A program made the position numbers and the translations under genes. Source: Oculatellaceae cyanobacterium bins.114 (lineage in GTDB: Bacteria; Cyanobacteriota; Cyanobacteriia; Elainellales; Elainellaceae). From it: a stretch of DNA of 45,688 nucleotides. The notes beneath the pieces are model-generated. The model worked only from the letters and a program-made list of their open reading frames with translations, was not told the DNA's origin and searched no databases. Below are positions 3,082-29,563 of this stretch, in pieces; position 1 is the stretch's first letter; every line of letters starts with the position of its first letter. The stretch covers positions 1 through 45,688 of the forward strand of contig JANRJA010000120.1 of the NCBI GenBank assembly GCA_033764315.1. The letters are read 5' to 3'.

Positions 3082-4767
3082 ATGTTTATCGACGCTCGCA
3101 CCCTTCTCGCCAACGATGTGATTGAAACCGATGTTTGTATTGTTGGGGCTGGTCCCGCAGGCATCACACTGGCACGAGAGTTTGCAGGTCAAGAGTTTCA
3201 AGTTTGTTTGCTCGAAAGCGGAGGACTAGAACCCACTCCAGAAGCGCGATCGCTGCTAGACGGGTCGATTGATCCCAAACATCGTTATCCTTCAGACGAG
3301 TTAATAGCAGGACGCGATCGCCAATTTGGTGGTTCTGCAAACCTCTGGTGCATTCAAGTTGACCCCACTGAAACTCAGGCCAATGTGCGCCATGTCATTC
3401 CCGATGACATCGATTTTGAGGCACGCGAGGGCATTCCCTATAGCGGTTGGGCAATTCGTAAAGCCGACCTAAAACCCTATTACGAGCGGGCACACCAAAT
3501 CTGTCAGATTGGTCCCTGCACCTATACCGCTGAAGCGTGGCAAACCGATGGCAAAAAACCCCTACCGTTAAAGGGCGATCGCCTCCAGTCGAGTGTGTTT
3601 CAGTTTGGCCCACAGGCCGTCTTCCCGCGTGATTATCAAGCAGAGTTAAGTCAAGCAGGAAACGTCACAACCTATTACAACGCCAACGTGTTGGAAATCG
3701 AAACCAATGACACGGCCAGCACAGTCACCCAGGTGCGAGTCGGGGCGATCCCTGGACATGAGTTTAAAGTCAAAGCACGGATCTTCATTCTGGCAACAGG
3801 CGGGTTTGAAAACGCCCGCTTATTGCTGCTCTCTAATGCAGTTCAACCCGCAGGGTTGGGCAATCAACACGACTTGGTAGGCAGATTTTTTATGGATCAC
3901 CCCGGTTTTCGGATTGGGGTCTTTGTGCCGAAACAACATCAGTTGTTTGATACAACAGAATTCTATGATTTGCACCGAGTCAATGGAGTGCCCGTGATGG
4001 GTAAATTAACGCTCAACCCAGATCTGGTCAAACAAGAACAACTGTTAAACATTTGCGTCATGCTCGTGCCACGTCCGTTGGGATATGAGTCGCGAGCGGT
4101 CAACTCTTTCCGACAATTGACCACTGCCCTCAAACGGCTGCAATTTCCTAAAGATGGACTCCAGCATCTAAAGCACGTCTTAACCCATCTCGATGAAGTT
4201 GTCACCTATGCCACTCGACGTGCCCAAAAGCAGGAGTTTGTCTACAGCCCTCGCTATGGGGGATGGTCGCGACGACCTGATGTGCGGCGATCGCTCAGAG
4301 CCTTTGAGGTAATTGCCCAAGCCGAACAAGCTCCTAACCCTGACAATCGGGTCACACTCAGCCAAGCGTGCGATCGCTTTGGTCGTCCCCTGGTTCACCT
4401 GCACTGGCGTTGGAGTGAGGTAGACCTCCGCAGCATCAGCCGATTTCAACAACTTTTTGGAGAGGCGATCAACGCAGAGGGGTTAGGAGAGTTTCATTCT
4501 CGCGATGAGATTGAAGGGGGTTTCCCTCGCTTTGGCAGCACTCACCACCACATTGGCACCACTCGCATGCACCCCGATCCAAAACAGGGGGTCGTTGATC
4601 AAAACTGCCAGGTGCATGGCCTCGCCAATCTCTTTATCGCTGGAAGTTCTGTTTTTCCAACCGGGGCTGGATATGCCAACCCCACACTGACCATCGTTGC
4701 TTTAGCGGCTCGCTTAGCCGACCACGTTAAACAAACCATGACAGCCAACCTGGCAACGCTTCCTTAA
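3082..4767 (+). CDS. GMC family FAD oxidoreductase
   Basis: DVCIVGAGPAG FAD-binding motif, GRFFMDHP, HHIGTTRM, ANPTLTIVALA. Confidence 0.9.
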   Translation: MFIDARTLLANDVIETDVCIVGAGPAGITLAREFAGQEFQVCLLESGGLEPTPEARSLLDGSIDPKHRYPSDELIAGRDRQFGGSANLWCIQVDPTETQANVRHVIPDDIDFEAREGIPYSGWAIRKADLKPYYERAHQICQIGPCTYTAEAWQTDGKKPLPLKGDRLQSSVFQFGPQAVFPRDYQAELSQAGNVTTYYNANVLEIETNDTASTVTQVRVGAIPGHEFKVKARIFILATGGFENARLLLLSNAVQPAGLGNQHDLVGRFFMDHPGFRIGVFVPKQHQLFDTTEFYDLHRVNGVPVMGKLTLNPDLVKQEQLLNICVMLVPRPLGYESRAVNSFRQLTTALKRLQFPKDGLQHLKHVLTHLDEVVTYATRRAQKQEFVYSPRYGGWSRRPDVRRSLRAFEVIAQAEQAPNPDNRVTLSQACDRFGRPLVHLHWRWSEVDLRSISRFQQLFGEAINAEGLGEFHSRDEIEGGFPRFGSTHHHIGTTRMHPDPKQGVVDQNCQVHGLANLFIAGSSVFPTGAGYANPTLTIVALAARLADHVKQTMTANLATLP

Positions 4768-13307: not shown

Positions 13308-14249
13308 CTAATGAGTGCGAACGGTAATAAAGTCAGCGATCGCCATGAGTGGGAGAGCCTTCTCTCCAAACCCCTCTAGTTGCGCTTTTGCATTGGTCAC
13401 TAACTGATTTGCCTGACGTTTTGATTCATCAATTCCCCAAAAGCTAGGATAGGTGGCTTTTTGAGCTTGCAGGTCTTTCCCCGCCGTCTTCCCGAGTTGT
13501 TCTTGAGTTGCCGTAATATCTAGCACATCGTCCACAATCTGGAAGGCAAGCCCAATATCTTGAGCATAGGCAGACAGACGCTGTTGATCTAGCTCTGATG
13601 CCCCCGCTAAGATCGCTCCACAGACCACCGAGGCTTCTAAGAGTGCCCCCGTTTTATGGCGGTGAATAAAGTTGAGTGTTTCCAGCGATACGTTGGGATT
13701 GCCCTCAGATTCCAGGTCTACCACCTGACCGCCGACCAATCCTGCGGCACCCACCGCTTTACCCAAATGAGCAATCACTTTCAAAACGCGATCGGCAGGC
13801 ACGCCGCGAGTTTGAACGGCGATGAATTCAAAGGCATAGGCTAGCAATCCATCGCCTGCCAAAATTGCAATATCGTCGCCATACACTTTGTGATTGGTGA
13901 GTTTACCCCGACGGTAGTCATCGTTATCCATCGCGGGCAAATCGTCATGAATCAATGACATGGTGTGAATCATCTCCAACGCGCAGGCCGTTGGCAATGC
14001 CATTTCAGTTGTGCCACCCACTAACTCACAGGTTGCCAGACACAAGATTGGGCGTAACCTCTTGCCACCTGCCAGCAAGGAATAGCGCATCGACTCATAA
14101 ATTTTGTCAGGATAGACGATCGCAATAGACTGATCTAAAGCTGACTCTACTGTCGCTTGCCGTTGAGCAAGATAGGTTGACAGGTCAAAGGTTGACGCCA
14201 AAGAGATTGAGTCTGTTATCACTGTTCCTTGATGCTGTGAACTCGTCAT
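13308..14249 (-). CDS. crtE: Geranylgeranyl diphosphate synthase
   Basis: [22 protein letters not shown] (FARM), FQIVDDVLD (SARM). Confidence 0.95.
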
Positions 14250-14340
14250 ATCCTCACCACTGTTTCAAACGCTGCGCTTTAGGTTAACACCGACTGGTTG
14301 CCGCAAATCACGTTACTAAGCTTCCATAATCGCATGTCTG

Positions 14341-15225
14341 CTACAGCCGTTGACGATAACTCCACACTGTATTGTGTAACAGCATAGTTACAGTCATGGG
14401 GCCTACCCCACCCGGAACCGGGGTCAGCCACTGAGCCACCTCTTTGACAGACTTAAAATCTACGTCTCCTACAAGGCGATGCGACGCAGTTTCTCCATCA
14501 GGAGAATCGCCCTGTTCATCTTTGATGCGATTGGTACCCACATCAATCACCGTCGCGCCAGGTTTCACCATCTCTGCGGTCACCAACCCCGGACGACCCG
14601 CCGCTGCCACCAAAATATCAGCAGTGCGAGCCATGCCGCTTAAATCAGTCGTGCGAGAATGGGCGATCGTCACCGTTGCATCAGCGGCCAACAACATCAT
14701 TGCCAATGGCTTACCCACCAAACTACTGCGTCCAATAATCACAGCATGTTTGCCTTTTGTCTCAATCTGATATTCCTTTAAAAGGCGCATAACACCAGCA
14801 GGAGTGCAGCTCTGGAGTCCTGGTTCGCCACGCAACAACCGCCCCATATTCAACGGGTGCAGCCCATCCGCATCCTTATCTGGATCAATTCGATTGAGCA
14901 GGGCTGAGGCATCTAAATGGTCAGGGAGGGGCAATTGCACCAGAATGCCATCTACGTTGTCATTGTGATTGAGATCGGAAATGGCTTGCTCTAGCTCAGC
15001 CGCACTCGTCATCGTAGGAAAATGCTGGCCAAAAGAGGCAATCCCAACCCTGGCACAGGCACGCTCCTTATTTCTCACGTAGGCAACGCTAGCAGGATTA
15101 TCGCCCACCATCAGCACTGCTAAACCGGGAGGACGAGCTATCTTGGGTTGTAGGATTTGCACCTGCTCTAGTAGATCAGCCTGGATTTTTTGGGCAAGTC
15201 CTTTGCCATCGAGAATATCAGCCAT
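14341..15225 (-). CDS. folD: Bifunctional methylenetetrahydrofolate dehydrogenase/cyclohydrolase
   Basis: [22 protein letters not shown], GRSx[16 protein letters not shown]. Confidence 0.97.
14476..14510 (-). mobile_element. 27-nt hairpin micro-element inserted in a HIP1 site inside folD
   Basis: Minus strand reads GCGA-[TTCTCCTGATGGAGAAACTGCGTCGCA]-TCGC; removal restores GCGATCGC and the reading [11 protein letters not shown]. Confidence 0.7.
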
Positions 15226-15423
15226 GTCAGAGTCAACCTCAGTTCCGGGAAAAACGGCTAAGCCGTTAGTAGATTTAGATTACAAAGATGCCCAATCAAA
15301 TAGCAGGTTAAACGACTAAAACTGCTAATTTCTGGGACGTTATAGCCCCAGTCAGAACAGAAGTTAGCAGTAACCCGTAAACAAAGAAATACAAAACATT
15401 ATTAAAGCAAGCTTAGGAGTGTA

Positions 15424-15819
15424 ATGGTAAAAGATAAATTTTGGCAATTCAGTCAGCTACTGGTTGTGATAGGAATATGCGGCTGTAGTCAGCTTGATTT
15501 GGGGGTGCTGGGGTTACAACTACCTGGAAGCGTCAGACAAATACAAGATTTACAGAGTAACCCAACCGTTAATTCTGTGGTCTACCTACGAGGACGGGTG
15601 GGCGATCGCGTTCCTCTAATCGAAGCTCAAGTTTACCAATTGAGTGATCCCACTGGCAGCATTTGGGTCTTTACCACCCAGCCAATTCCTCAATCAGGCG
15701 ATACGATCGCCATTCAAGGACAAATCCGCTTTCAGAGCATTCCCCTGGCTGGGCAAGAGCAAGGAGAGGTGTATATCGAAGAACAAAACCGCTGGATAGA
15801 AGAAGGGAGAGGGGAGTAA
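15424..15819 (+). CDS. Hypothetical OB-fold-like putative lipoprotein
   Basis: Hydrophobic N-terminus ending ICGC; VYLRGRV...YQLSDPTGSIWV...GDTIAIQG pattern; AGGAG RBS. Confidence 0.7.
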   Translation: MVKDKFWQFSQLLVVIGICGCSQLDLGVLGLQLPGSVRQIQDLQSNPTVNSVVYLRGRVGDRVPLIEAQVYQLSDPTGSIWVFTTQPIPQSGDTIAIQGQIRFQSIPLAGQEQGEVYIEEQNRWIEEGRGE

Positions 15820-15908
15820 ACCGGTGAAAGGGTAAGAGCCATGTCTCAAAGGTTAACGATTTATGCTTGACGACTCACGATTAACCATTAACGATTAACG
15901 ATGGACGG

Positions 15909-16376
15909 TTGATCACTAACCTAACCCCTACTATCTTGATCATGCAGACTCATCCAATAGAAGTAGCGATCGCCATCTTGCACCAAGACAACCAGTTTTT
16001 GATGCAACTGCGGGACAACATTCCGGGGATCATCTATCCGGGACATTGGGGATTTTTTGGGGGGCATCTTGATCCCGGTGAATCTCCAGAAGAAGCGATG
16101 TGGCGTGAGTTAGCCGAAGAAATTGAATACACCCCACCTCATCTGGCAAAATTCAAAACGTATGATGCAGATCCTCAAGTCATTCGTCATGTTTATGTTG
16201 CGCCATTGGCAGTGGCAGTAGATACACTGCAATTACATGAGGGCTGGGATTTAGGGTTATTGTCAGTAGAGGATATCCAACGAGGCGATCGCTACTCTGT
16301 CAAAGCCAATCAAGTTCGCCCTTTGGGTAAACCGCATCAGCAGATTCTGTTAGATTTCATTACCCAGAGTCTCTAA
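15909..16376 (+). CDS. NUDIX hydrolase (start probably the internal ATG of MQTHPIEV)
   Basis: Nudix box GGHLDPGESPEEAMWRELAEEI; QLRD...YPGHWGFFGG. Confidence 0.92.
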   Translation: MITNLTPTILIMQTHPIEVAIAILHQDNQFLMQLRDNIPGIIYPGHWGFFGGHLDPGESPEEAMWRELAEEIEYTPPHLAKFKTYDADPQVIRHVYVAPLAVAVDTLQLHEGWDLGLLSVEDIQRGDRYSVKANQVRPLGKPHQQILLDFITQSL

Positions 16377-16393
16377 GGAGTACATTTTTGCAT

Positions 16394-16407
16394 GGTACAA
16401 ATGTACT
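16394..16407. promoter_or_regulatory. Candidate cyanobacterial LexA (SOS) box
   Basis: GGTACAAATGTACT matches RGTAC-NNN-DGTWCB exactly, about 65 bp upstream of the metalloprotease start. Confidence 0.6.
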
Positions 16408-16471
16408 ATATTTAGTAGGCAACTGGCTCATCCCTGGTGAGCTGCTCTAACTCTCTTGAAAGCTTGATTCT

Positions 16472-17248
16472 GTGAAACATCCTCAGACCAAATCCATTGT
16501 TAAAGCGGACTATCGAGTTCGAGTCAGCCCCAAAGCAAAACACGTCTGCATCAAAGTCTCCCATTCAGGCGATGTAGAAGTGGTCGTGCCAAAAGGGTTT
16601 GATCAACGTCATATTCCCGATATCGTGCAGCGGCGGCGCGATTGGATCGCCAAAACCATTCAACGCATTGAAGCAGAACGGCAGGGTATGCGGACTGAGC
16701 CAGGTGACGCGATGCCTCAGGTCATTTCCTTGCGATCGCTTCCTGAAGAGTGGACTGTGACCTACCGACCCACCTCAGAGCCTCACCTCAAAGTGGTGTT
16801 GGCGATCGCCCCTAAAGGGGAACTGCTTCGCACCACCCATCAGCTTGTGTTGCAAGGACCAATTCAGCACCTTGATTTGTGTCAGCAAGTCCTGCGGCGT
16901 TGGCTGCACCGCAAAGCTCATCTTCATTTAGTGCCCTGGTTAGAGCAGGTGAGTGACCAGATTAGATTGCCTTTCTCAACCGCTTCAGTGAGGGGGCAAA
17001 AAACTCGATGGGCAAGCTGTTCTAACAAAAAATCGATTAGCCTCAACTACAAACTGTTATTCCTGCCACCCCATCTCGTCCGCTATGTCTTGATTCACGA
17101 GTTGTGTCATACCATCCACCTCAACCATTCCTCGGCATTTTGGGCACTGGTAGAAGAAAAAGAACCCAATTATAAAAATCTAGACTCTGAACTTCGCACG
17201 GCGTGGCGATATGTGCCGGAGTGGGTGGAACAGTCACCAGACTATTAA
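16472..17248 (+). CDS. YgjP/DUF45 (M48/SprT-like) zinc-dependent hydrolase
   Basis: QKTRWASCS, ISLNYKL, YVLIHELCH (HExxH), NHSxxFW. Confidence 0.88.
   Translation: MKHPQTKSIVKADYRVRVSPKAKHVCIKVSHSGDVEVVVPKGFDQRHIPDIVQRRRDWIAKTIQRIEAERQGMRTEPGDAMPQVISLRSLPEEWTVTYRPTSEPHLKVVLAIAPKGELLRTTHQLVLQGPIQHLDLCQQVLRRWLHRKAHLHLVPWLEQVSDQIRLPFSTASVRGQKTRWASCSNKKSISLNYKLLFLPPHLVRYVLIHELCHTIHLNHSSAFWALVEEKEPNYKNLDSELRTAWRYVPEWVEQSPDY
16802..16836 (+). mobile_element. HIP1-associated micro-element copy, in-frame inside the DUF45 gene
   Basis: GCGATCGCCCCTAAAGGGGAACTGCTTCGCACCAC; shares the hairpin plus AACTGCTTCGCA core with 14476, 26587 and 29794. Confidence 0.6.
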
Positions 17249-17258
17249 TTTTTGTCAA

Positions 17259-17294
17259 TTGTCAAGAAAAACAAGAAACAGTAAAATACGATAC
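17259..17294 (+). promoter_or_regulatory. Sigma70-type promoter with an NtcA consensus site overlapping the -10 box
   Basis: TTGTCA (17259-64), 17-bp spacer, TAAAAT (17282-87); GTA-AAATACGA-TAC at 17281-17294. Confidence 0.6.
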
Positions 17295-17481
17295 AGAAAT
17301 AGGAATGAAATGTTCTTTTATTTCTGCCATTTTTGCTGAGGCTACTTTTTTAACGGGCGATCGCATACCTTTGCCTCACTGGGGTTGCTAAATGGCATGG
17401 CTTTATCTCTATATAAAGCCGTGTGATCTCTAGCCGCATGTCGCTGACAACTTAAATCATCTTTAGGGTGGAGAAAACTAT

Positions 17482-17928
17482 ATGAAACTGACATACCGGG
17501 GTGCGGCCTATGACTATGAGCCAACTCCCGTTGACATGACTGAAACTGGCATTACAGGTCACTATCGGGGCCAAGCGTTTCAATTTGCTTACCCCAGACA
17601 CATTCCTGTGCCCCAACCCCCGGGAGACTATCAATATCGGGGAGTGGCTTACCACAAAACATCGACTGGGGCGATCGAGTCTGTTGCGGCTCCGATCGCA
17701 GTTCTAACCCCAGTTGTTACCCCAACAGCACCCGTCACTCCAAGCCCAACAGGGCTTACCTATCGCTCGGTAGCTGCTTCTCGACTTAACTTGCAACGAG
17801 AGATTGCAGGCAAACATCGCGACAACATTCACCGTCGCTTACAACACCGCCTTGAAGTTGCCAGAGCCAAAGGGGATCAAGCCTTGATTAATGAACTTGA
17901 ACGGGAAATGGAATACACCTCTCGATAA
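17482..17928 (+). CDS. DUF4278 domain protein with PirA-like C-terminal segment
   Basis: MKLTYRGxxY and repeated YRG motifs; C-terminus HRDNIHRRLQHRLEVARAKGDQALINELERE; GGAG RBS. Confidence 0.85.
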   Translation: MKLTYRGAAYDYEPTPVDMTETGITGHYRGQAFQFAYPRHIPVPQPPGDYQYRGVAYHKTSTGAIESVAAPIAVLTPVVTPTAPVTPSPTGLTYRSVAASRLNLQREIAGKHRDNIHRRLQHRLEVARAKGDQALINELEREMEYTSR

Positions 17929-17985
17929 CGCCGAGGTCAACTCCCAGTCTGATCATCCTGTAGTCTTCGCAAGACTACTCAAGAC

Positions 17986-18047
17986 TCATCATGTTTGGGG
18001 GAAAACATGATGACACCAATAGGGGCACTGGCTGTCGTGCCCCTATT
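17986..18047. terminator. Two adjacent hairpins after the DUF4278 gene, the second REP-like
   Basis: TCATCATGTTT...AAACATGATGA and CAATAGGGGCAC...GTGCCCCTATTG. Confidence 0.55.
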
Positions 18048-18115
18048 GTTTGCCCTTATGGTTTGTATGCGACACTAGATGGGAAAACATTGATTTGTTA
18101 AAGCCCCACATCATC

Positions 18116-18523
18116 ATGACTGCCACATTAAAAGAGTTTTTAGAAGCCTGTCACACCCTTGGCACTTTGCGAATGATCGTCACCAGTAGTGCTGCTGTTT
18201 TAGAAGTGAAGGGGGCGATCGAAAAATTATTTTATGCAGAGCTGCCCAAAGGCAAATACGCCAATATGCATCAAGAGGGGTTTGAATTTCACCTGAATAT
18301 GGACAGAATTACTCAGGTGAAATTTGAAACGGGGGAAGCCAAGCGAGGCAACTTTACGACCTATGCCATTCGTTTATTAGATGAGACCTCAGAACCCGCT
18401 ATGAGCCTGTTTTTGCAATGGGGCAAACCCGGAGAATATGCACCGGGGCAAGTCGAGGCATGGCACGCCTTAAAAGAACAGTATGGCGAAACCTGGCAAC
18501 CTGTTCCTCTAGAGACGCTATGA
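18116..18523 (+). CDS. ChuX/HutX-like heme-binding family protein
   Basis: LGTLRMIVTSSAAVLEVKG...FEFHL pattern; ATG 18116 preferred over TTG 18050. Confidence 0.75.
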   Translation: MTATLKEFLEACHTLGTLRMIVTSSAAVLEVKGAIEKLFYAELPKGKYANMHQEGFEFHLNMDRITQVKFETGEAKRGNFTTYAIRLLDETSEPAMSLFLQWGKPGEYAPGQVEAWHALKEQYGETWQPVPLETL

Positions 18524-19326
18524 CGCGGCAAATGCAATGGGGTTGGTTGTGGCTGATCAGCCTAGTGCTGTGGCTGATGTGGAGTAGCCCAACTCAGGCA
18601 GGAGAATTGGCCGATCGCCTCGCTCAGTTTCCAGATTGGCAAACAAAGCCTGCCGTTCAAGCGGCTAAAGGAGATCTAGCCTATCCCGATTGGTTTGCTG
18701 GAGAGTGGCTCGCTACGACAACCCTGGTCGATCTGGTGGCTCCGATTCCAGACCTGACGACCCCTGGTTTTGAGGGCAATCGGCAATACCTGAATCAGCC
18801 TGTCCCTTTTCAAGCTCGATTTGTAGAGGCGCGATCGCTCTACCCATCCAACCCTTCTATCCTATCGATGCCATCTGTCTTACCTCAAGCAAGGCCACCA
18901 ATCGTCTCCGATCGCGCCTTTAACGGGTTGAGTTTAGCAAAAGCATATTTGGGCAATGAATCAGTGGTTTCAGTGCGGGTTGATCCCACCAATCCCAATC
19001 GCCAAATCACGCGATTGAAAGACAATCTCCAATTCATTTCAACGATTGCGGCTCGTGCCACAGAAGCTCCCACTCCCAACGATTTCTTAACGACTGAAGT
19101 ATTTCTGCAAGAGTTTCGAGGAGCCCCACAACTCTATTTCAATCAGGTGGAGACGACAACGGCCTATCATCGCAACGTTGGGTCTGATCCGGCGATCGCT
19201 GCTGATCAAGTCACGGCCATCTATTTATCTCCGCAAGACCCAAATTTCTTTAAGGCAGGCGATCGCCCCGTTGCGCTCTATCGCTATCGCATGGAGTTTT
19301 CACCACTGCCCCAGGGCAAGCCGTGA
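18520..19326 (+). CDS. Conserved exported hypothetical protein (DUF6816-like)
   Basis: ATGA overlap with the upstream stop; signal-peptide-like N-terminus; DLAYPDWFAGEW, DRAFNG, YLSPQDP motifs. Confidence 0.7.
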   Translation: MTRQMQWGWLWLISLVLWLMWSSPTQAGELADRLAQFPDWQTKPAVQAAKGDLAYPDWFAGEWLATTTLVDLVAPIPDLTTPGFEGNRQYLNQPVPFQARFVEARSLYPSNPSILSMPSVLPQARPPIVSDRAFNGLSLAKAYLGNESVVSVRVDPTNPNRQITRLKDNLQFISTIAARATEAPTPNDFLTTEVFLQEFRGAPQLYFNQVETTTAYHRNVGSDPAIAADQVTAIYLSPQDPNFFKAGDRPVALYRYRMEFSPLPQGKP

Positions 19327-19731
19327 TCACAAATTGACAGAAATCGCTTGTACTGGGCAAACCGGCACACACTGCTCACAGACGATGCAGCGCGATCGCG
19401 TGAAGTTGAGCCGAAAGGTTTGAGGATCTAGATTTAAGGCTTCAGTGGGGCAAATGCCTGTACACAAGCCACAGTGAACGCATACCTCTTCATCAATCAA
19501 AATCTCACGGCTTGCGGTAGAAACACCAATATCTTGGGTTCGCAGCCAATCTAGAGCAGCGTCCAGTTGATCAATATCGCCCGACAGCTCAACCACCAAG
19601 GTGCCAATTTGGTTAGGGGCTACTTGTGCCCGAATGATATTGGCCGCGATGTTGAAGTCTTTTGCCAATCGATAAGTAACTGGCATGTGCACTGCACGTT
19701 TAGGAAAGGTCAGGGTAACTCGCCGTTTCAC
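19327..19731 (-). CDS. NIL-domain protein with 2x[4Fe-4S] ferredoxin domain
   Basis: NIIRA NIL motif; CVHCGLCTGICP and CIVCEQCVPVCP. Confidence 0.93.
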   Translation of the reverse strand: MKRRVTLTFPKRAVHMPVTYRLAKDFNIAANIIRAQVAPNQIGTLVVELSGDIDQLDAALDWLRTQDIGVSTASREILIDEEVCVHCGLCTGICPTEALNLDPQTFRLNFTRSRCIVCEQCVPVCPVQAISVNL

Positions 19732-19839
19732 AAGCTAAAGCCATAGAGAATCGGTAGACTAAGAATAACAGTCAGGCAAGCCCATCCCACCTTGCTGTTT
19801 CAGTCCCTTCCAGTGTATCGTTCAGCCCAGATTCTTGTT

Positions 19840-20436
19840 ATGTCTGAAAAACTTCATGACCCTGCCCCAATACCTGATGCAATGCCTAATTCTGACTTGG
19901 CAACTCGCATTCGGAATTTGTTGATTGTATTTGTGGCAGTGGTTCTCAGTACAGCGATTTTTCTGGGTCTACGTACCGAAACCGGGTCTGCCTCCTTGAG
20001 TGCGATGGCAGATACCGCTATTCCCCTAGAGGTGGCAACTACCAATGGCAAGCCTTCTTTGATCGAGTTTTATGCCGATTGGTGCACCAGTTGTCAGGCA
20101 ATGGCAGGAGACATGAACAGCCTTAAAGAAGAGTATGGCGATCGCGTCAACTTTGTCATGCTTAACGTTGACAACAGCAAATGGCTCCCCGAAATGCTGC
20201 GCTATCGGGTGGATGGCATTCCCCATTTCGTCTTTATCACCGGAGCAGGAGAGGCGATCGCCAGCACAATTGGTGAGCAACCCCGCACCATCATGGCAGC
20301 CAACTTAGATGCTCTGGCTACGAATGCCGCTCTCCCCTATGTGCAAACCAACGGGCAATTCTCTAAGGTTGAAGCCCCTGCGGTCTCTCCATCTCGTAAC
20401 GCCGATCCTCGCAGTCACGGCAGCGATGTGCAATGA
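19840..20436 (+). CDS. txlA: Membrane-anchored thioredoxin-like protein (TxlA/HCF164 type)
   Basis: TM helix, EFYADWCTSC, MLNVDNSKW, VDGIPHF; ATG 19840 preferred over TTG 19792. Confidence 0.85.
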   Translation: MSEKLHDPAPIPDAMPNSDLATRIRNLLIVFVAVVLSTAIFLGLRTETGSASLSAMADTAIPLEVATTNGKPSLIEFYADWCTSCQAMAGDMNSLKEEYGDRVNFVMLNVDNSKWLPEMLRYRVDGIPHFVFITGAGEAIASTIGEQPRTIMAANLDALATNAALPYVQTNGQFSKVEAPAVSPSRNADPRSHGSDVQ

Positions 20437-20475
20437 GCTAACTGGAGTTAACTGGGGCACTCTGATAGAGTTCCT

Positions 20476-22305
20476 CTATGTCTCATCGCTATGACGATGC
20501 GAGACTTCATCCTGCAATTTTTTGAAATACTCACTTTCCGTAATTTGAGCCACTTCCTGCTCTAGTTTTTTCTGATCAATTTCAATTCTCAATTCTTCGA
20601 TGGTGCGTTTCAACAGTTCTTCTTCACGCTTGCGAGCGGTCACATCTTCAACAATGCCCTCAAAGTAGAGCAACTTGCCATCGTTTGCTCGCACAACACG
20701 GGTGTTTTCTTCGAGCCAGATAATAGCACCGTCTTTGCGATAAATCTGGTAGGCAAAATGTTTGACCTCGCCCTGTTCTTCTAACTGACGCTTAAATTCA
20801 ATCTGACTGGCAGGGTCAACATAGACTTGGGTGCCTCGATTGATCAAAGCACTCAACATCTCCTCTGAGGTGTCATAGCCATATAGTCGAGCCATCGCTG
20901 GATTGACGTTGATAAAATATCCCTCTGGACTCGCTTGAAAAATTCCTTCTAAAGCATTTTGAAAAATACTGCGGTAGTTTTCTTCGGCAATCCGCAATTC
21001 CTCATTCTTGGCTTCCAACGCTGTAAAGGAATCCTTGAGTTGCCCCGACATGCTGTTAAAAGCATTCGAGAGCCGTTCAATTTCTTTGATCTGACTGGAT
21101 TTGAGATGTTGATCAAGATTGCCATCCGCAATTTCTTCAGAGGCTTGAGCGACCTGGAGCAGGGGTTGTGAGATCTTGTGTGAGGTAAAGATGCCCAGAG
21201 CGATCGCCCCTACCAAGGCCGCCGCACAAAGCAAAATGCTATTGCGGGTATTGGCTTGAATCTGCCCCATAAAATCTGATTCAGGCACCACCACCACAAT
21301 CAACCAATCAATGCCACGCCCATCTTGAAACGGCAACACCTGCACAAATTGTCGTTGCCGATTAAGAATAAACTCTGTCTGGAGCGATCGCTGAATTTGA
21401 GTAAAACTACCAAACTGGCTCTGCAACTGGCGAGCCGTCTCTCGAATCAGAGGTTCACTGCTCTCAGTTGCCTGCAACAGCTTGGCGTTTTCACCTTCCC
21501 CCGAAATCAACGACTCATCCGTAGAACTGGATAAGATCGCTCCCGATCGCTCAATCACAAACGCCTGACCCGATCGCCCAATGGAGAGGTTAATCAAAAA
21601 ATTGCGAAAATCTTTCGGCAAAATAACATCAGTGGCACACACTCCTAACAATTGCCCACCTGACTCTCCATACACGGGTTGGCTCGCTGTAATTGTCGGC
21701 AACTGGGTTGTAAAATCAAGGTAGACCGGACTCCAAACAGGACGCTCAGCTTGAACGGCAGCCTTATACCAGGGGCGAATGCGGGCATCATATTTACCCA
21801 ACGCCTCCACAAAAAATCGACGGTTGCCCAGATTGTCCACACTATAGAGATTCATGCGCCCTCCGGTTGCGTCGTTTCTCAGCATGATCTGAAAATCAGC
21901 TTCGTTAAACACACGCGTTACACCGAGAAATGTGCCTTCTCGTTGGGTGCCACAATAGACGGCATCGACATAGGGAGAAATCTTGACCTGCTGAAAAAAT
22001 TGAGCCAGGTTTTGAGCATTGTCAAAGTCAATGTCTCCTTGCACAAATGCCACAGCATTCAAGCGGTTGAGCGAGTGGGGGCTTTCAAAATAGCCTTGTA
22101 GCTCTCGTTGAATGCGAAATGCCAGTTCGGTTTGCAAGGAGGTCGCCACCTCACTGACGGCTCTCTGCCCACTCAAAAATGACAACCACCCTACCAACCC
22201 CACAGCAGTCACAATTTGCAACACAAAAGGCACTACTAACACGCTTTGTAAGCTAAACCTTCGATGCTTTAAGATGGCACGTTTGAGGTCAATCATGGTC
22301 ATCAA
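20476..22305 (-). CDS. Membrane sensor: TM-Cache-TM-HAMP-PAS-coiled-coil tail, no enzymatic output domain
   Basis: LVVPFVLQI TM1, YDARIRPWYKAA Cache motif, HAMP (EIERLSNAFNSM), PAS (YRSIFQNALEGIF...EGIVEDVTARK), stop about 50 aa later. Confidence 0.85.
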   Translation of the reverse strand: MMTMIDLKRAILKHRRFSLQSVLVVPFVLQIVTAVGLVGWLSFLSGQRAVSEVATSLQTELAFRIQRELQGYFESPHSLNRLNAVAFVQGDIDFDNAQNLAQFFQQVKISPYVDAVYCGTQREGTFLGVTRVFNEADFQIMLRNDATGGRMNLYSVDNLGNRRFFVEALGKYDARIRPWYKAAVQAERPVWSPVYLDFTTQLPTITASQPVYGESGGQLLGVCATDVILPKDFRNFLINLSIGRSGQAFVIERSGAILSSSTDESLISGEGENAKLLQATESSEPLIRETARQLQSQFGSFTQIQRSLQTEFILNRQRQFVQVLPFQDGRGIDWLIVVVVPESDFMGQIQANTRNSILLCAAALVGAIALGIFTSHKISQPLLQVAQASEEIADGNLDQHLKSSQIKEIERLSNAFNSMSGQLKDSFTALEAKNEELRIAEENYRSIFQNALEGIFQASPEGYFINVNPAMARLYGYDTSEEMLSALINRGTQVYVDPASQIEFKRQLEEQGEVKHFAYQIYRKDGAIIWLEENTRVVRANDGKLLYFEGIVEDVTARKREEELLKRTIEELRIEIDQKKLEQEVAQITESEYFKKLQDEVSHRHSDET

Positions 22306-22433
22306 GCCAGTAAGTCGTGAGAACTAATCAATAATGGCATGATTAGAATTTCACGAACTAATTAAGTTCCTTGAATTCTAGAACGCTCTGCGGGAGAACT
22401 TAACCCTTTTTAGCAGGCAATATCTTAAGAGAG

Positions 22434-22610
22434 TTAAACCCATATGCGACTTTTCCAAGATCCCCTGGTTTTGGGCAATGTGAATCAGACTCTCTTTAAA
22501 GATTAACCCCGTGTGCGACTTTCCCCAGATCCCCGGTTGCGGTGACGCAAATCAGACTTCTTTGAGGATGCTGAACGAGCAATCGGGGATCTAGACCACT
22601 AAGTTGCATA
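22434..22610. repeat. Composite repeat: two diverged ~69-bp direct units plus an inverted copy of the unit end
   Basis: TGCGACTTT..AGATCCCC..GGTT..AATCAGACT twice (about 22445 and 22514); GGGGATCT..AAGTTGCATA at 22585-22610. Confidence 0.6.
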
Positions 22611-22805
22611 TCGCATGATTTAGGAAGTGGTTAGGGACGGGCAAACCAAAAAATACCTATGACGCAAGTTTTGGCCCCGCTCAACTCGCAGATTGGGAGG
22701 GCTGAGCGAAGTCGAAGCCCGGTGGTACAAGATTTTCTTGCAACTCCCTTAGCGGTCATTCATCCGAGGTTACGAATGATAGAGGCTATAGCAGATGGAT
22801 TATCT

Positions 22806-23627
22806 CTAAGTCTCTGTCATCCGTTTCAACAGTTGCTTCACGATCGCAGCGTCCTCAGCCATCGGAGCACTGATTAAATAGTTCTCTAAATCCTGAGTGG
22901 CTTCGACCCATCGCCCCATCTGGTAATACAAAATGCCGCGATCGCGTTGTTCAACGGGGGCTTCTGGAAAGACCAATAACAGACGTTCAATCACGGCTAA
23001 CGCTTTTGACCACTCCCCTCGATTCAGGTAGATCACCTTTAAGTTTGTCAACATTCGACCTAAAAAGCGGCGTGGGGTGACGGGTTCTAAAAAGTTGACG
23101 TCAAAGCGAATCGTTTTTCCATGAACCTGACTGAATCGTTCTTGACAATCTTCTGAAAAGAGAATTTCTCCCCCGTGAAACGGGTCTACAAACACTTCCA
23201 TCTCTTCTGCCACAGGACGAATCAAGAAATGCCCTGGCATTCCCACACCGGCCATCGGAAAGTCAAGCCGACGAGCAATCTCAAGATAGACCAGCGAGAG
23301 CGTAATGGGAATACCAACTCGGCGATCAATGACTTGATTGAGATAACTGTTCCGAGGATCGTAATAGTCTTCCAGGTTGCCATTAAATCCTAAATCTTTG
23401 TAGAGATAGTCATTGATAGTTTGAATGACGCGCAAAGGATAGCGGGTTGATGGCAATCGTTCCTCAACTTCGTCTGCCATCGTATCCAGAGCATTTAAAT
23501 AGTCATCGGGATCCAGATTTGGGTATTCCTCTTGGGCGAAAAATAAAGCAGCTTTTGCCAGATCAATGGTGTTGTCAGATTGATGAATTTCTTGATAGAA
23601 ACGCTGCCGTGATAAAGGAAATTCCAT
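22806..23627 (-). CDS. SirB1 family protein (transglutaminase-like core plus TPR)
   Basis: GFNGNLEDYYDPRNSYL, GIPITLS, GMPGHFL, RDRGILY. Confidence 0.9.
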   Translation of the reverse strand: MEFPLSRQRFYQEIHQSDNTIDLAKAALFFAQEEYPNLDPDDYLNALDTMADEVEERLPSTRYPLRVIQTINDYLYKDLGFNGNLEDYYDPRNSYLNQVIDRRVGIPITLSLVYLEIARRLDFPMAGVGMPGHFLIRPVAEEMEVFVDPFHGGEILFSEDCQERFSQVHGKTIRFDVNFLEPVTPRRFLGRMLTNLKVIYLNRGEWSKALAVIERLLLVFPEAPVEQRDRGILYYQMGRWVEATQDLENYLISAPMAEDAAIVKQLLKRMTET

Positions 23628-23631
23628 TTAA

Positions 23632-24177
23632 TTAGCGTCCTTTCAGGCGATTCAACATCCAGTCTAGTCTGGCTTCAGCCAGTCTTAAACTATCCTCTAG
23701 ATAGTGATTTTCTTCGGCTGGCAGAGCTTGTGTCTGAGGTGAGGCTGGGGTTTCCTTTTGATAGCCCAAGCGACTGACGGTGCTGCGTAAGCGATCGGAG
23801 AGAAAAATGGCAAGGGCCTGATAGAAGTGCGATGAAAATGACAAATCTTGTGCTAGCTTTGCAGCGAGTTGCGATCGCGGAATCGTGAATACTAACGCAT
23901 CTTCGAGGGCTTTCACCGTTGCTGATGGGCGACGAGAATCGACAAAAGACATTTCCCCAACGACTTCACCGTTTCCCAAGCGGGCGACTTCTTCCCCTCC
24001 GAGAGATTCAACACACACCGCTAAGGTGCCTTCTAAAACAATATAGATGGCATCAATCGGTTCTCCTTCATGAATTAGAACCGTGCCTGCGGTGACATGT
24101 TTGCTTCTGCCAACAGAGAGAATCCACTCAAAATCGCGATCGCTAATCTCTGCCAAGATATACAGTGCTTTTTTCAT
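23632..24177 (-). CDS. Stand-alone cyclic nucleotide-binding domain protein
   Basis: LIHEGE...GEVVGEMSFVDSRRPSATV cNMP cassette, no HTH; GGAGG RBS. Confidence 0.9.
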   Translation of the reverse strand: MKKALYILAEISDRDFEWILSVGRSKHVTAGTVLIHEGEPIDAIYIVLEGTLAVCVESLGGEEVARLGNGEVVGEMSFVDSRRPSATVKALEDALVFTIPRSQLAAKLAQDLSFSSHFYQALAIFLSDRLRSTVSRLGYQKETPASPQTQALPAEENHYLEDSLRLAEARLDWMLNRLKGR

Positions 24178-24352
24178 AACCCTCCCTCATGTTGATGCAA
24201 CAACCCCTATTGCCCGCCCAATCTGTCTAACTTAGAGGACGGTTTTAAGAGATCTCAAAATAATAGGCAACACCCGCACACCCATCTCATTAAATTCAAC
24301 TATGTAAATGGCAAAGAAACTCTTTTTTTCTTCCTTTCTACCCTAATTTCCT

Positions 24353-25144
24353 ATGTTTCTGTTTCTGTCTAAGTTATTACCCCTGTTCATCTACCCACTA
24401 GGTCTAGCGTGTCTATTTCTGTTAGTTACCTTGATCACCCTCTGGAAGCGACCTCGCATCGCTGCTCTGAGTAGCATTGCCGCGTTAGTTGTGTTGCTAA
24501 TCGGCAGTAACGGTTGGGTTGCTGCGCAATTGGTGCGATCGCTAGAGTGGCAATATCTCCCTACTGCAACGCTACCAAATGCAGAAGCAATTGTGGTTTT
24601 AGGCGGCGGCATTAAACCTCAAATTGCCCCTCGTCCCTGGATAGATGTGGCAGAAGCGGGCGATCGCACTATTTATGGAGCGCAATTATATCAACAAGGA
24701 AAAGCCCCACTAATCGTTTTAAGCGGGGGGCGGATTGAGTGGAAAGGGGGTGGGCCTCCAGAATCGGAGGATATGGCAAAGCTTGTCGAAGCATTGGGGG
24801 TTCCCAAAACGGCGATCGCCCAAGACCCCAACTCACTAAACACTTACGAAAATGCGGTGAATGTCAAACAAATTTTGCAGCAACGAGGCATTAATCGGGT
24901 GTTGCTCGTCACCTCTGCGATGCACATGCCCCGATCAATGGGGATTTTTAAGAAACAGGGGATAGAGGCGATCGCTGCTCCTACTGACTTTGGCATCACA
25001 ACCCAAGAACTGAACGAGAATCAAAGTACAGTTCAGGGGTTCCTATTGAACCTGCTGCCCGACGCCGAAAAACTGCAACAAACCAGTCGCGCCATTAAAG
25101 AGTATGTCGGGATTTTAGTTTATCGACTCAAAGGGTGGATGTGA
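24353..25144 (+). CDS. YdcF/ElyC (DUF218) family membrane protein
   Basis: AIVVLGGG, LSGG, SLNTYENA, LLVTSAMHMPRS. Confidence 0.92.
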   Translation: MFLFLSKLLPLFIYPLGLACLFLLVTLITLWKRPRIAALSSIAALVVLLIGSNGWVAAQLVRSLEWQYLPTATLPNAEAIVVLGGGIKPQIAPRPWIDVAEAGDRTIYGAQLYQQGKAPLIVLSGGRIEWKGGGPPESEDMAKLVEALGVPKTAIAQDPNSLNTYENAVNVKQILQQRGINRVLLVTSAMHMPRSMGIFKKQGIEAIAAPTDFGITTQELNENQSTVQGFLLNLLPDAEKLQQTSRAIKEYVGILVYRLKGWM

Positions 25145-25148
25145 CATA

Positions 25149-25184
25149 AACGGTAGGGGCACGATTAATCGCGCTCCTACCGTT
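25149..25184. terminator. REP-like hairpin between convergent genes
   Basis: AACGGTAGGGGCACGATTAATCGCGCTCCTACCGTT. Confidence 0.6.
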
Positions 25185-25187
25185 CAA

Positions 25188-26489
25188 TTACAGACCTGAC
25201 ATCACAGCTCGCGCAGCTTCTAGGGTGCGATCGATATCTGCTTCAGTGTGTGCTAGTGAGGTAAACCCTGCTTCAAATTGAGACGGAGCCAGATATACTC
25301 CCTGCTCCAACATGCCCCGGTGAAACCGAGCAAATTTGTTCAGGTCCGATTTCTTCGCATCTTCGTAGTTGTAGACGGGCCCCTCTGCAAAAAAGAAGCC
25401 AAACATGCCGCTAATTTGTCCACCAGACGCAACATGACCCGTTTCTTGAGCCACTTGCAACATCCCATCTGCCAATCGTTTAGTGATCTGGTCAAGCTGC
25501 TCATAGGTGCCTGGACGTTGCAGCAGTTCCAAGGTTTTAATGCCAGCCGTCATCGCCAGAGGATTGCCAGATAGCGTTCCGGCTTGATACATCGGCCCCG
25601 CAGGAGCCACCATCGACATAATGTCTTTGCGACCACCATACGCGCCAACCGGCAAGCCACCTCCAATAATCTTGCCCAAGGTCGTCAGGTCAGGAGTAAT
25701 CCCAAATTTTTCTTGAGCACCCCCATAGGCAATGCGAAAACCCGTCATCACTTCGTCAAACATCAACAAAGCATCGTTTTGCTGAGTCACCTCGCGCAAG
25801 CCTTCTAAAAAGCCAGGTTGAGGCGGGATAAACCCTGCATTGCCGACGATCGGTTCTAAAATAACCCCAGCAATCTCACCGGGATTTTCGGCAAATAGGG
25901 CTTTGACCGCTTCAAGGTCGTTAAATGGAGCAGTCAAAGTGTTGGCGGTAGTCGATTTGGGTACCCCCGGAGAGTCAGGTAAACCCAGGGTTGCGACCCC
26001 AGACCCCGCTTTCACTAAAAACATGTCGGCATGCCCGTGATAACAGCCCTCAAATTTGATGATTTTGTCGCGTCCAGTAAAGGCTCGCATCAGACGCAAC
26101 ACAGCCATACACGCTTCGGTGCCGGAGTTGACAAAGCGCACCATTTCAATGCTGGGAACAGCAGCAATCACCATTTCTGCCAACACATTTTCGAGATAGC
26201 ACGGTGCACCAAAACTGGTGCCCTGATCCAGTGCTCCATGCAATGCTTGAATCACATCCGGATGGGCATGACCACAAATTGCAGGCCCCCAAGTACCAAC
26301 ATAGTCAATGTATTGATTGCCATCAACATCCCAAACGTAGGCTCCTTTGACGTGATCAAACACAATGGGTTGTCCGCCAACAGATTTAAATGCACGAACC
26401 GGAGAGTTGACTCCACCCGGCATGAGGTGTTGAGCTGCCGCAAAAATTTCTTCTGAACGGGTGGTTTTTAACGAAGATGTAGTTACCAA
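25188..26489 (-). CDS. hemL: Glutamate-1-semialdehyde 2,1-aminomutase
   Basis: [39 protein letters not shown]. Confidence 0.98.
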
Positions 26490-26586
26490 AGTATTTTCCT
26501 CTTATCAACACATTTTTTAGGAGTAGGGCAGGAGGAGTGAGGTTCACATCTAACCCTCTACTCTTCACCCTGCTGCCGTTTAGGGA

Positions 26587-26619
26587 GCGATTCCCTATAG
26601 GAGAGCTGCTTCGCATTGC
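26587..26619 (+). mobile_element. HIP1-associated micro-element copy (intergenic)
   Basis: GCGA-TTCCCTATAGGAGAGCTGCTTCGCA-TTGC. Confidence 0.6.
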
Positions 26620-26686
26620 ACATTTTATTATCCTATGCATCGCGAATGACGGTATTCAAAACTTGTCAAGTTTACGGTTAAAAAGG

Positions 26687-27952
26687 CTAATCGAGTCCAC
26701 TGCCTTGAACGACATGTTTAACCGTAGTAAGGGTTTCTAAGCTAATCAGCCCACGTCGGTGTCCTTTTTGATTAGACATCCCCAACGAAATGGGACTACC
26801 TCGCTTAGGATTGCGGTAAAACCGGGGAGAGGCGTTGATGTAAGTGATGGCACTATTAATGCCCAAGGCAAAATGACGGCTCTCTTGATAGGATTCAGTG
26901 GCTAAACAGTCGGCATGTCCGCTGCTGTAATCATTAATCCAGTCGATCGCCTCTTCTAGCCCATCCACAAACTTAAAGGCAATGGTGCGATCGAGATAGG
27001 GTTGACTCCACTCTGACTCGTCTGCCAGTTTGATCTCAGGAAAACTGGCTACCAAATCAGCATCTCCCCTGAGTTCATAGCCTTTTTCTCGGAGAGTCTC
27101 CCACAACAACGACAACATCGTGATGTTTTGATTGCGATGAATCAACACTTTTTCGATCGCATTTACCGGATCAGGCTCACTTTGATGACTGTCTAAGATC
27201 ATCCACCGCGCCACATCAATTGCCCCAGAGGGCGACCAATAGAGATAGCAGTTGCCGATCGCTGTTTTAAGCACAGGAACGGTGGCTTGGCGAATCACCT
27301 GTTGCACCAGGCTATTGCGCCCATAGGGAATGACTAGATTAACGTATTGGTCTTGGGTAATCAGTTCTCGTAACAGGTCACCCTGATCAGACGACAACAG
27401 TTGCAGACAACTCGGAGGAAGCCCTGCATCTTCGATCGCATTTTGTAGAGTTTCAACAATGACCTGGTTAGAGTGACTCGCTTCAGAGCCTCCTTTTAAG
27501 ATCAAGCTGTTGGCGGTACGGAGACACAGCCCTGCCGCGATCGCCCCCAGCTCTGGAAATGCTTCATAAACCAAGGCAATCACCCCCAATGGAGTCAATT
27601 GGCAATAGGTTTGTCCCTGTTCGACTTGGTAAGGCGTGTGTAACACCTGCCGAGTTGGATCTGACAGCTCACTCAGGCGTTGCAAAATCCGCACCGAACT
27701 TTGAAGCCGTTCGGGGGTCAGTTTCAGCCATTCTAAAATCAATTCTGGGACTGCCATCTCACGACTGGCTTCTAAATCCAATGTGTTGGCATCTAAAATG
27801 TCGTCTTGGCGGTTATTGAGTGCGTCCGCCATAATCTGTAAGGCTTGACTGCGGTCAGTGCCCTTGAGTGCTGCCAGTTCTAAGGAGGATTGATAGGCCT
27901 GTTGAACTGCGGTGCTTAAGTAGGAAGAGGAATACAAGGAGTCCGTCACCAT
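26687..27952 (-). CDS. Gamma-glutamyl phosphate reductase-like protein (divergent ProA paralog)
   Basis: PLGVIALVYE, LILKGGSEAxHSN, YSSGHAD, INAS; catalytic CNAxE reads VNAIE. Confidence 0.85.
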   Translation of the reverse strand: MVTDSLYSSSYLSTAVQQAYQSSLELAALKGTDRSQALQIMADALNNRQDDILDANTLDLEASREMAVPELILEWLKLTPERLQSSVRILQRLSELSDPTRQVLHTPYQVEQGQTYCQLTPLGVIALVYEAFPELGAIAAGLCLRTANSLILKGGSEASHSNQVIVETLQNAIEDAGLPPSCLQLLSSDQGDLLRELITQDQYVNLVIPYGRNSLVQQVIRQATVPVLKTAIGNCYLYWSPSGAIDVARWMILDSHQSEPDPVNAIEKVLIHRNQNITMLSLLWETLREKGYELRGDADLVASFPEIKLADESEWSQPYLDRTIAFKFVDGLEEAIDWINDYSSGHADCLATESYQESRHFALGINSAITYINASPRFYRNPKRGSPISLGMSNQKGHRRGLISLETLTTVKHVVQGSGLD

Positions 27953-27955
27953 CGA

Positions 27956-28680: not shown

Positions 28681-28752
28681 AGCGGGTAACGCGATTCGAA
28701 CGCGCGACATTCACCTTGGCAAGGTGACGCTCTACCACTGAGCTATACCCGC
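28681..28752 (-). tRNA. tRNA-Gly(GCC), CCA not encoded
   Basis: Minus strand GCGGGTATAGCTCAGTGGTAGAGCGTCACCTTGCCAAGGTGAATGTCGCGCGTTCGAATCGCGTTACCCGCT folds as a cloverleaf with loop TTGCCAA. Confidence 0.97.
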
Positions 28753-29524: not shown

Positions 29525-29563
29525 GATATATCAATACAGGCGATCGCCTGGTTTAGACCACAG

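Follow-up and report, generated by a model that had tools for sequence, protein, structure and literature searches.

Why does the folD gene of Oculatellaceae cyanobacterium bins.114 carry nine extra codons, placed between the two halves of the octamer HIP1 (highly iterated palindrome 1)? The gene lies in the window analysed here, a 45,688-nt stretch (contig C52, JANRJA010000120.1) of a draft genome of 6,637,253 bp (251 contigs, 47.6% G+C). The minus strand reads GGC GAT, followed by TCT CCT GAT GGA GAA ACT GCG TCG CAT and then CGC, so that 27 nt encoding SPDGETASH separate the halves of a perfect HIP1. These codons add S241-H249 to FolD between D240 and R250; removing the 27 nt restores GCGATCGC, as a first-pass annotation of the window had noticed, and the nine residues drop out to give ...QGDRLVGD. 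That annotation had listed four related sequences in the window and proposed a transposase-less, HIP1-directed mobile micro-element that writes peptide loops into proteins. The genome holds 10,682 GCGATCGC octamers, a density that marks a HIP1-rich cyanobacterium, and perfect HIP1 sites are spaced at about one per 620 nt. We find about 110 copies of the inserted sequence in the genome, and they very probably represent a gene-less mobile micro-element that makes HIP1-targeted micro-insertions. The observations as a whole are best explained, with good confidence, by a non-autonomous 27-bp mobile micro-insertion that integrates into HIP1 without target-site duplication or deletion.

A family of 27-nt repeats within HIP1

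The genome was searched with an nhmmer profile iterated four times (E<=0.01), with a mononucleotide-shuffled genome as control. The search returned 110 copies in the genome and 0 in the shuffled sequence, so the genome-wide enrichment expected by the annotation was found. The nhmmer consensus is GCGATTACCCCAAAGGGGGAACTGCTTCGCATCGC. Placed in its target it reads GCGAT/TACCCC-N4-GGGGAACTGCTTCGCAY/CGC, which describes a 27-nt insert, TACCCC-NNNN-GGGGAACTGCTTCGCA(T/C), within a HIP1 or HIP1-like octamer. The exact 35-nt span that corresponds to a 27-nt insert was found in 95 of the 110 copies, with lengths taken from the coordinates of the hidden Markov model (HMM). The bare 3' 10-mer CTGC[TG]TCGCA is only weakly enriched (42 matches, both strands), and 17 of these matches have the whole layout.

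All four sequences described for the window were located, with insert lengths of 27, 27, 25 and 29 nt as given and with the coding copies in-frame; a fifth copy, in ribH, had been overlooked (Table 1). The split-HIP1 layout attributed to the four is exact at the folD site, the only one of them with both halves perfect, but the others read CCAC, TTGC and GTGA.

In 27 of the 95 copies the element starts with CG, and the left junction then rebuilds a full HIP1. Copies of the TA and CG subfamilies do not differ significantly in age (p=0.26). Units of 26 nt, a variant with a 3-nt loop, form direct tandem arrays of two or three at C239:39460-39545, C218:2243-2302 and 3211-3270, and C239:38670-38745; these arrays are intergenic and adjoin small toxin-antitoxin-like genes. 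The arrays are consistent with repeated insertion into the HIP1 rebuilt at the left junction, and slippage would give the same arrangement. A search for an autonomous parent, with the 5' and 3' halves 40-6000 nt apart, was swamped by matches of the 5' half, which includes HIP1 and matches 8151 sites.

Empty sites in a congener

Sites of the genome were compared with a congener (G001) whose FolD is 87% identical and whose syntenic DNA shows about 78% nucleotide identity. Twenty sites were compared: 14 are empty in G001, 5 are occupied (one only probably) and 1 is unclear. All five window copies are absent from G001, where copies 1 and 2 are faced by a 27-nt gap that is exact at folD. Nine further sites gave 6 empty, 2 occupied and 1 unclear, and six more gave 3 empty and 3 occupied (one probable). 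For the reciprocal comparison the 20 best-scoring G001 copies were used. Nine of these are cleanly bracketed in the bins.114 genome and all nine are empty there, with exact 27-nt gaps; 2 are bracketed but unalignable, 8 are not bracketed and 1 has no match.

The octamers at the empty sites point to the target. The 14 empty sites in G001 read GCGATCGC in four cases, GCGATTGC in one (opposite copy 3), GCAATTGC in two (opposite copies 4 and 5) and CAGATCGT in one, and nothing HIP1-like in six, folD included. At the nine reciprocal sites we found perfect HIP1 six times and ACGATCGC, GCCATTGC and GAAATTGC once each. When the 23 empty sites are pooled, 10 carry a perfect GCGATCGC and 15 lie within 2 mismatches of it; since perfect HIP1 is met only about every 620 nt, chance would give far fewer than 10 of 23. 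No target duplication or deletion was seen at the aligned empty sites in the comparison with G001. The octamer GCAATTGC is a symmetric double transition of HIP1 and itself a palindrome; the bins.114 genome has a split G(C/T)GA...TC(A/G)C at these places.

The direction of change follows from more distant genes. The FolD gene measures 882 nt here, none of the other 40 genomes searched has one longer than 870 nt, and the nine residues are missing from 24 of 24 FolD orthologues among the matches listed and from all 29 other YgjP-like orthologues. Because outgroup FolD and YgjP-like orthologues lack the residues, the differences are insertions here and not deletions elsewhere. An alternative without mobility, in which the 27 nt date from an ancestor or encode a selected peptide motif and were precisely lost in relatives or arose by convergence, would be compatible with presence and absence in two genomes, which alone give no polarity. 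It is made highly improbable by these orthologues, by the presence of the 27-mer at about 110 unrelated loci, and by the occurrence of the same DNA in five reading phases, in both orientations and in intergenic DNA, from which it follows that the unit exists at the level of DNA and not of peptide.

Five of the 19 resolvable sites are shared with the congener, and therefore the family was active both before and after that split. The FolD and YgjP genes of G005 and G020, two other genomes with many copies, are empty, so the family was also active independently in other genera. The mobile, HIP1-directed element proposed by the annotation thus agrees with the 110 copies, the precise 27-nt presence and absence and the HIP1 octamers at empty sites. 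Its expectation for orthologues was borne out by FolD and YgjP-like proteins without the residues, but not by an intact HIP1 at the folD position of G001.

The point of insertion

A T on each side leaves three possible positions for the junction. In column 32 of the family alignment the youngest copies have either T or C, and the CGC that follows is constant, so column 32 belongs to the element. A C stands there in 6 of the 9 copies that have diverged least in this genome and in 9 of the top-scoring 20 of G001, and it is common in other genera. For the C-bearing copies L271, L280 and L287, whose empty site has T, GCGAT^CGC is the only position that requires no extra mutation. The YgjP alignment is also best if the insert is placed one base further right, which gives VVLA-I-TH here and VVLA-I-SH in G001. 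In this gene a full GCGATCGC is rebuilt at the left junction of copy 2; its right flank is CCAC, and with the insert shifted one base to the right the target becomes GCGAT/CAC.

By these comparisons, GCGAT^CGC would most likely be the position of cutting and insertion. Two observations speak for caution: copy L286 favours the -1 position, with three informative cases behind the +1 boundary, and column 32 shows no significant correlation with internal columns. The boundary first proposed, GCGA^TCGC, was correct in placing the insertion within HIP1, but GCGAT^CGC fits better. Because HIP1 is palindromic, GCGAT^CGC equals GCG^ATCGC on the other strand. Restriction enzymes of the PvuI and AsiSI type cut CGAT^CG at the same bond.

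Coding context and effect on proteins

According to a codon-usage classifier of open reading frames (ORFs), 69 of the 110 copies lie in coding ORFs (40 sense, 29 antisense) and 41 in non-coding DNA. The same classifier assigns 80% of random 35-nt windows and 89% of HIP1 sites to coding ORFs. As about 89% of HIP1 sites are in genes, ORFs receive most of the insertions. The coding share of the copies is below that of HIP1 sites (binomial p=6e-13), as expected if many genic insertions are purged. The 35-nt span is kept in 69 of 69 coding copies, while 15 of the 41 non-coding copies are 33, 34, 36 or 37 nt long (Fisher p=5e-8). This indicates that the element is 27 nt at birth and that indels are tolerated only outside genes, the difference in insert length that the annotation had suggested looking for.

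Over the reading phases the copies are distributed 35/27/7, in agreement with HIP1 itself (4759/3007/1722; chi-square p=0.16). The element corresponds to nine codons and is open in five of the six frames. Antisense phase 2, with 0 copies, is the sole unused combination, and the TTAC variant would read TAA there. The encoded peptides are loop-like, for example GDYPxGGTASHR, AIAPxGELLRxA, RLPxxGNxFAS, AMRSSSPxGVIA and DAKQFPxxGxR. In the YgjP-like protein the nine residues added by copy 2 lie within AIAPKGELLRT. In an AlphaFold2 model of FolD (23 sequences; mean pLDDT 89.2) the only segment with values below 50 comprises residues 235-249, the insert included, and FolD orthologues vary in length at this loop. 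The insert in the YgjP-like protein likewise falls in a length-variable turn of the orthologue alignment. The claim that the element writes in-frame peptide loops is thus well founded, given that all coding copies are 35 nt and that orthologues lack the nine residues.

The location of the copies bears on the possibility of an RNA intermediate. In such a route the element would be transcribed in host RNAs, reverse-transcribed and inserted at HIP1, and RNA intermediates for some SDRs (small dispersed repeats) are said to have been proposed by Elhai and colleagues in 2008. Most copies indeed lie in transcribed genes, but the sense bias is not marked (40 versus 29), and no reverse transcriptase is linked to the element, for which no dedicated search was made. 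We regard this route as distinctly unlikely.

Several points weigh against reading the family as a mobile element. Mobility is inferred from the comparison of two diverged genomes. The 6 of 14 empty G001 sites that are not HIP1-like could reflect later drift or looser targeting. Copy lengths taken from HMM coordinates understate indels, as seen with the copy at 29794-29830, which was scored as 35 nt despite its 2-nt insertion. Coding status comes from our own classifier and not from an annotation.

Hairpin and sequence constraint

The consensus forms a hairpin, CCCC-N4-GGGG. Information content is 0.1-0.6 bit in the loop columns 12-15 and about 0.9-2.0 bits in the stems and over most of the tail. 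The loops all differ among four copies that have 0 of 27 mismatches outside the loop, and 13 named species-level records from several genera have the same non-loop sequence with differing loops. Conserved stems and tail together with variable loops thus indicate that stems and tail are under constraint in the replicating lineage, whereas the loop can vary freely.

The annotation had stated that the hairpin changes in sequence and keeps its pairing. This holds for the four copies it had read, but not convincingly for the family. Compensatory change lacked statistical support in three comparisons: covariation in a fixed register (hairpin plus outer GCGAT/ATCGC pairing) was 0.131 versus a shuffled mean of 0.135, which is not significant; in a register-free test the minimum free energy was as low in 11 of 300 shuffles, a marginal result; and register-free stem length was not significant (128 of 300 shuffles). 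Only the pair 8-19 is associated (p=0.0045), and the 3' arm contains many pair-breaking G-to-A changes. We conclude that the hairpin is not maintained in situ and that the structure decays after insertion. The term structure-conserved is therefore apt for the conserved stem with its hypervariable loop but not for compensatory change, which was not significant. A second hairpin of 3 bp in the tail, TGC-TTY-GCA, was considered and dropped, because columns 23, 29 and 31 vary without their partners.

Distribution

A covariance model gave matches in 14 of 41 relatives. The counts are lower bounds, as 150 candidates per genome were scored: at least 120 in G005, at least 104 in this genome, at least 71 in G001, at least 37 in G020, and 1-4 in ten others. 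The remaining 27 of the 41 relatives had no match among the candidates scored. When the class was sampled evenly, matches (E<=1e-4) were present in 9 of 151 genomes and 3 of 34 families. Among relatives equally rich in HIP1 the occurrence is patchy, which speaks for a specific trans-acting factor that only some lineages possess.

An exact pattern that catches about 12% of copies was run on one genome per species (185,579 species) and returned 47 stretches. Thirty-eight of these are cyanobacterial, nearly all of them 35 nt long with the hairpin, and come from Leptolyngbyaceae, Myxacorys, Stenomitos, Elainella, Pantanalinema, Crinalium, Phormidium tenue, FACHB-471 and FACHB-502 records. At this sensitivity of about 12%, none of the 38 cyanobacterial stretches is from Nostocaceae, and all belong to Leptolyngbyaceae-type genomes. 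The nine non-cyanobacterial stretches (35-37 nt) have no hairpin and were rejected as chance matches.

Copies in different named species share immediate flanks at L123/L143, L160/L165, L128/L167 and L148/L158. It follows that some of the insertions are orthologues between species or genera, and these could serve to date the family.

Comparison with other HIP1-splitting families

The closest published parallel is SDR5 of Nostoc punctiforme and its relatives, whose length is given as 21 nt in the account of PMC13756078. It is described as inserted between nt 3 and 4 of HIP1 in the relevant passage of PMC4390886, a position that is GCGAT^CGC on the other strand. The part of PMC5861425 that deals with SDR-like repeats reports none outside Nostocaceae. 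A presumed SDR5 was obtained by scanning the Nostoc punctiforme plasmid pNPUN01 for GCG-N21-ATCGC, which gave 14 matches versus 5 for the reversed control. Five of the matches, at 163323, 179599, 299508, 319038 and 325292, are related copies of TAGGCGTAGCCCGCCGTAGGC with two 3-bp hairpins, and we presume this 21-mer to be SDR5.

Both elements are ultra-small, gene-less, dispersed and hairpin-forming, occur inside genes, have a length that is a multiple of three, and lie within HIP1 at the same position as far as the SDR5 position is described. They differ in length (27 versus 21 nt), in structure, with one hairpin of 4-5 bp and a 12-nt tail in the 27-mer and two 3-bp hairpins in the presumed SDR5, and in host range, the 27-mer occurring in Leptolyngbyaceae-type genomes and not being found in Nostocaceae. 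Their sequences are unlike: the best ungapped register gives agreement at no more than 10 of 21 positions, TAGGCGTAGCCCGCCGTAGGC has 0 matches with up to 4 mismatches in the bins.114 genome, and a search of 83 kb of pNPUN01 with the family HMM stayed at chance level (E=0.79). The 27-mer is thus an SDR5-type element and a new sequence family in another lineage, compared by sequence with the presumed SDR5 only, so that another SDR family may match it. The analogy with published SDR families suggested by the annotation is confirmed for target, position and a length of 3n. The literature searched contained no account of a 27-nt repeat that splits HIP1, nor any of repeats like it in cyanobacteria of the Leptolyngbya type.

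The presumed SDR5 contains two GTAG motifs, each opening a 3-bp hairpin. Repetitive extragenic palindromes (REPs) tagged with GTAG are described for cyanobacteria in the account of PMC3733652, and by this resemblance the presumed SDR5 may be linked to REPs of the RAYT (REP-associated tyrosine transposase) type.

Another family that splits HIP1, unrelated to the 27-mer, is present in the bins.114 genome itself: a twin hairpin of 24 nt with the form GCGA-TCTCTTTGAGATACCCGCAAGGGG-TCGC. Its 10 copies all have a 32-nt span and unique flanks, and 8 of the 10 lie in coding ORFs. The two families share the HIP1 target, in-frame behaviour and the lack of coding capacity; they differ in sequence and in the single main hairpin of the 27-mer, which is about ten times more abundant in the genome.

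The coexistence of such families would fit a route that needs no dedicated transposase. In microhomology-templated repair, a broken HIP1 would prime on the GCGAT and CGC halves of an occupied site and copy the hairpin between them, with HIP1 sites acting as break hot spots and no transposase involved. Two unrelated families splitting HIP1 in one genome, a third, unrelated 21-mer at the same position in Nostoc punctiforme, the fact that the families have only HIP1 flanks and hairpins in common, and exact gaps without target duplication are all in its favour. However, it gives no account of the 27 of 41 HIP1-rich relatives without copies among the candidates scored, nor of the identical non-loop sequence across genera, which looks like recognition by a specific factor. 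We therefore consider repair of this kind rather unlikely.

Other clusters between GCGA and TCGC were rejected as HIP1 insertions. The flanks of the 33-nt and 21-nt clusters are on average 62% identical over 20 nt on each side, so these are parts of longer repeats resembling miniature inverted-repeat transposable elements (MITEs). A 22-nt cluster is an internal piece of the 27-mer family and not a separate one. The 33-nt cluster comprises 85 copies of GCGA-N33-TCGC (AGGCGAACTTCGCTCTGATAGCCGCGAATTTAT), for example at C8:15855, C12:640, C14:4934 and C16:11717, and related repeats of 125-300 nt have dozens of matches in G001. A tandem repeat with a 48-nt period at C172:73656-73846 has units with GCGA-N18-TCGC (TTTTCTGTAGGGTGGGCA).

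Comparison with REPs, MITEs and IS200/IS605

Insertion sequences of the IS200/IS605 type insert immediately 3' of a fixed 4-5-nt target without target duplication and have subterminal hairpins, two of which are needed at their ends. The 27-mer resembles them in inserting 3' of a fixed short target without duplication and in having a hairpin; it differs in having one hairpin, in being only 27 nt long and in showing no association with counts of the Y1 transposase. Hence a HUH/Y1 transposase (IS200/IS605 TnpA or RAYT-like) that inserts 3' of GCGAT by 'peel-and-paste' and recognises the hairpin would suit the geometry, and the genome has 12 matches to Y1_Tnp (PF01797). The element would then be the smallest palindrome-associated transposable element. 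Besides the missing second hairpin, Y1 copy number does not track element number in the 41 genomes (18 versus 1 in G007, 22 versus 0 in G031, 3 versus at least 37 in G020), and sense and antisense copies are nearly equal in number. The GTAG or CGTC tag of REPs, as presented in PMC3733652, is also absent, and on balance we judge a Y1 transposase to be an unlikely agent.

REPs and REPINs, which are mobilised by RAYTs according to the accounts in PMC3116915 and PMC3733652, share with the 27-mer a short, hairpin-forming, non-autonomous and patchy nature. As portrayed there, REPs lie outside genes, are tagged with GTAG or CGTC and form inverted doublets, in contrast to the 27-mer, which is 63% intragenic, untagged, a singlet and confined to a fixed palindromic target. 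The only multi-copy arrangements of the 27-mer are the direct 26-nt tandems, and its consensus has neither GTAG nor CGTC. MITEs are likewise non-autonomous and dispersed, but the 27-mer has no terminal inverted repeats (its ends, TACCCC and TCGCAY, are not inverted repeats of each other) or target-site duplication and is about 5-20 times shorter.

Copies and neighbouring features

The copies in the window and their host genes are given in Table 1, together with the 24-nt family. Rfam has no match at any of the five window copies (E<=1, window 14000-30500); the matches in this region are one tRNA and one chance match. The tRNA gene (RF00005, 71.8 bits; 28681-28752, minus strand) is just downstream of ribH. 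The intergenic copy 3 has a hemL-like gene (25188-26489) and a proA-like gene (26687-27952) as neighbours. The stretches 15853-15934 and 30029-30080 each match many dispersed places in G001; they are probably dispersed repeats, MITE-like or of another kind, that have no relation to the 27-mer.

Table 1. Copies of the 27-nt element, their host genes in the window, and copies of the 24-nt family.
Feature	Position	Strand	Context	Details
Copy 1, 35-nt unit (HIP1 halves plus 27-nt insert)	14476-14510; insert proper ~14479-14505	minus	in folD
folD, bifunctional methylenetetrahydrofolate dehydrogenase/cyclohydrolase	14341-15225	minus	host of copy 1	Pfam PF02882 (3.7e-69), PF00763 (3e-38)
Copy 2, 35-nt unit	16802-16836; insert ~16807-16833	plus	sense in YgjP-like metallopeptidase gene
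YgjP-like (former DUF45) metallopeptidase gene	16472-17248	plus	host of copy 2	Pfam PF01863 (4.6e-46)
Copy 3, 25-nt insert	26587-26619	plus	intergenic	between GCGA and TTGC; 2-nt deletion
Copy 4, 35-nt unit	28989-29023	plus	antisense in C-terminal tail of ribH
ribH (lumazine synthase)	28907-29524	minus	host of copy 4
Copy 5, 29-nt insert	29794-29830	plus	intergenic	between GTGA and TCGC; 2-nt insertion in hairpin
24-nt family, 10 copies	C196:3291, C4:243, C158:8680, C232:8868, C113:56548, C29:2433, C251:33752, C209:73221, C206:25478, C88:3765			none in window

Proposed mechanism

For the mobile 27-bp element we tentatively propose a nick-and-copy mechanism, which is possible but falls short of being probable. 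A trans-acting activity would nick or break HIP1 at CGAT^CG, and a single-stranded, hairpin-folded copy of an existing element would then be joined or copied into the site, in copy-and-paste fashion. The machinery would need the hairpin stems and the 3' tail and would leave the loop free. Cut position, single-stranded intermediate and the identity of the enzyme are inferred in this scheme. Once inserted, copies decay like neutral DNA, and those in genes probably persist as loops of nine residues at the protein surface; FolD, the YgjP-like protein and the tail of RibH are the cases in the window.

Significance

To our knowledge, HIP1 has had no assigned function in 30 years, and hardly any molecular event other than SDR5 has been tied to it. 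The present family is a second, abundant and sequence-unrelated one that splits HIP1 in a distant filamentous lineage, at the same position and with clean empty-site evidence. HIP1-directed micro-insertion thus looks like a general cyanobacterial process and not a Nostoc curiosity. The kind of element was known; the family, the lineage and the anatomy are new. Conserved proteins, FolD for one, owe lineage-specific loops to the nine-residue inserts, which can also lead alignments and the assignment of orthologues astray. For finding the machinery, the data supply a donor consensus and a target that are both defined, and sister genera with high and zero copy numbers; a 27-nt sequence that integrates at an 8-bp site would also be of interest as a tool.

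The HIP1-splitting families seen so far are 21, 24 and 27 nt long, all multiples of three, which is expected from selection at the level of the family because nine-tenths of the targets are in genes. It is conceivable, if still doubtful, that HIP1 is a common docking site for unrelated hairpin micro-elements of these lengths throughout the phylum, inserted at CGAT^CG by a conserved HIP1-directed activity. If so, element length would be tuned by family-level selection, nearly 90% of the targets being genic. The elements would then constitute a natural in-frame loop-insertion mutagen of cyanobacterial proteins, and their insertion would be the first concrete molecular transaction for HIP1.

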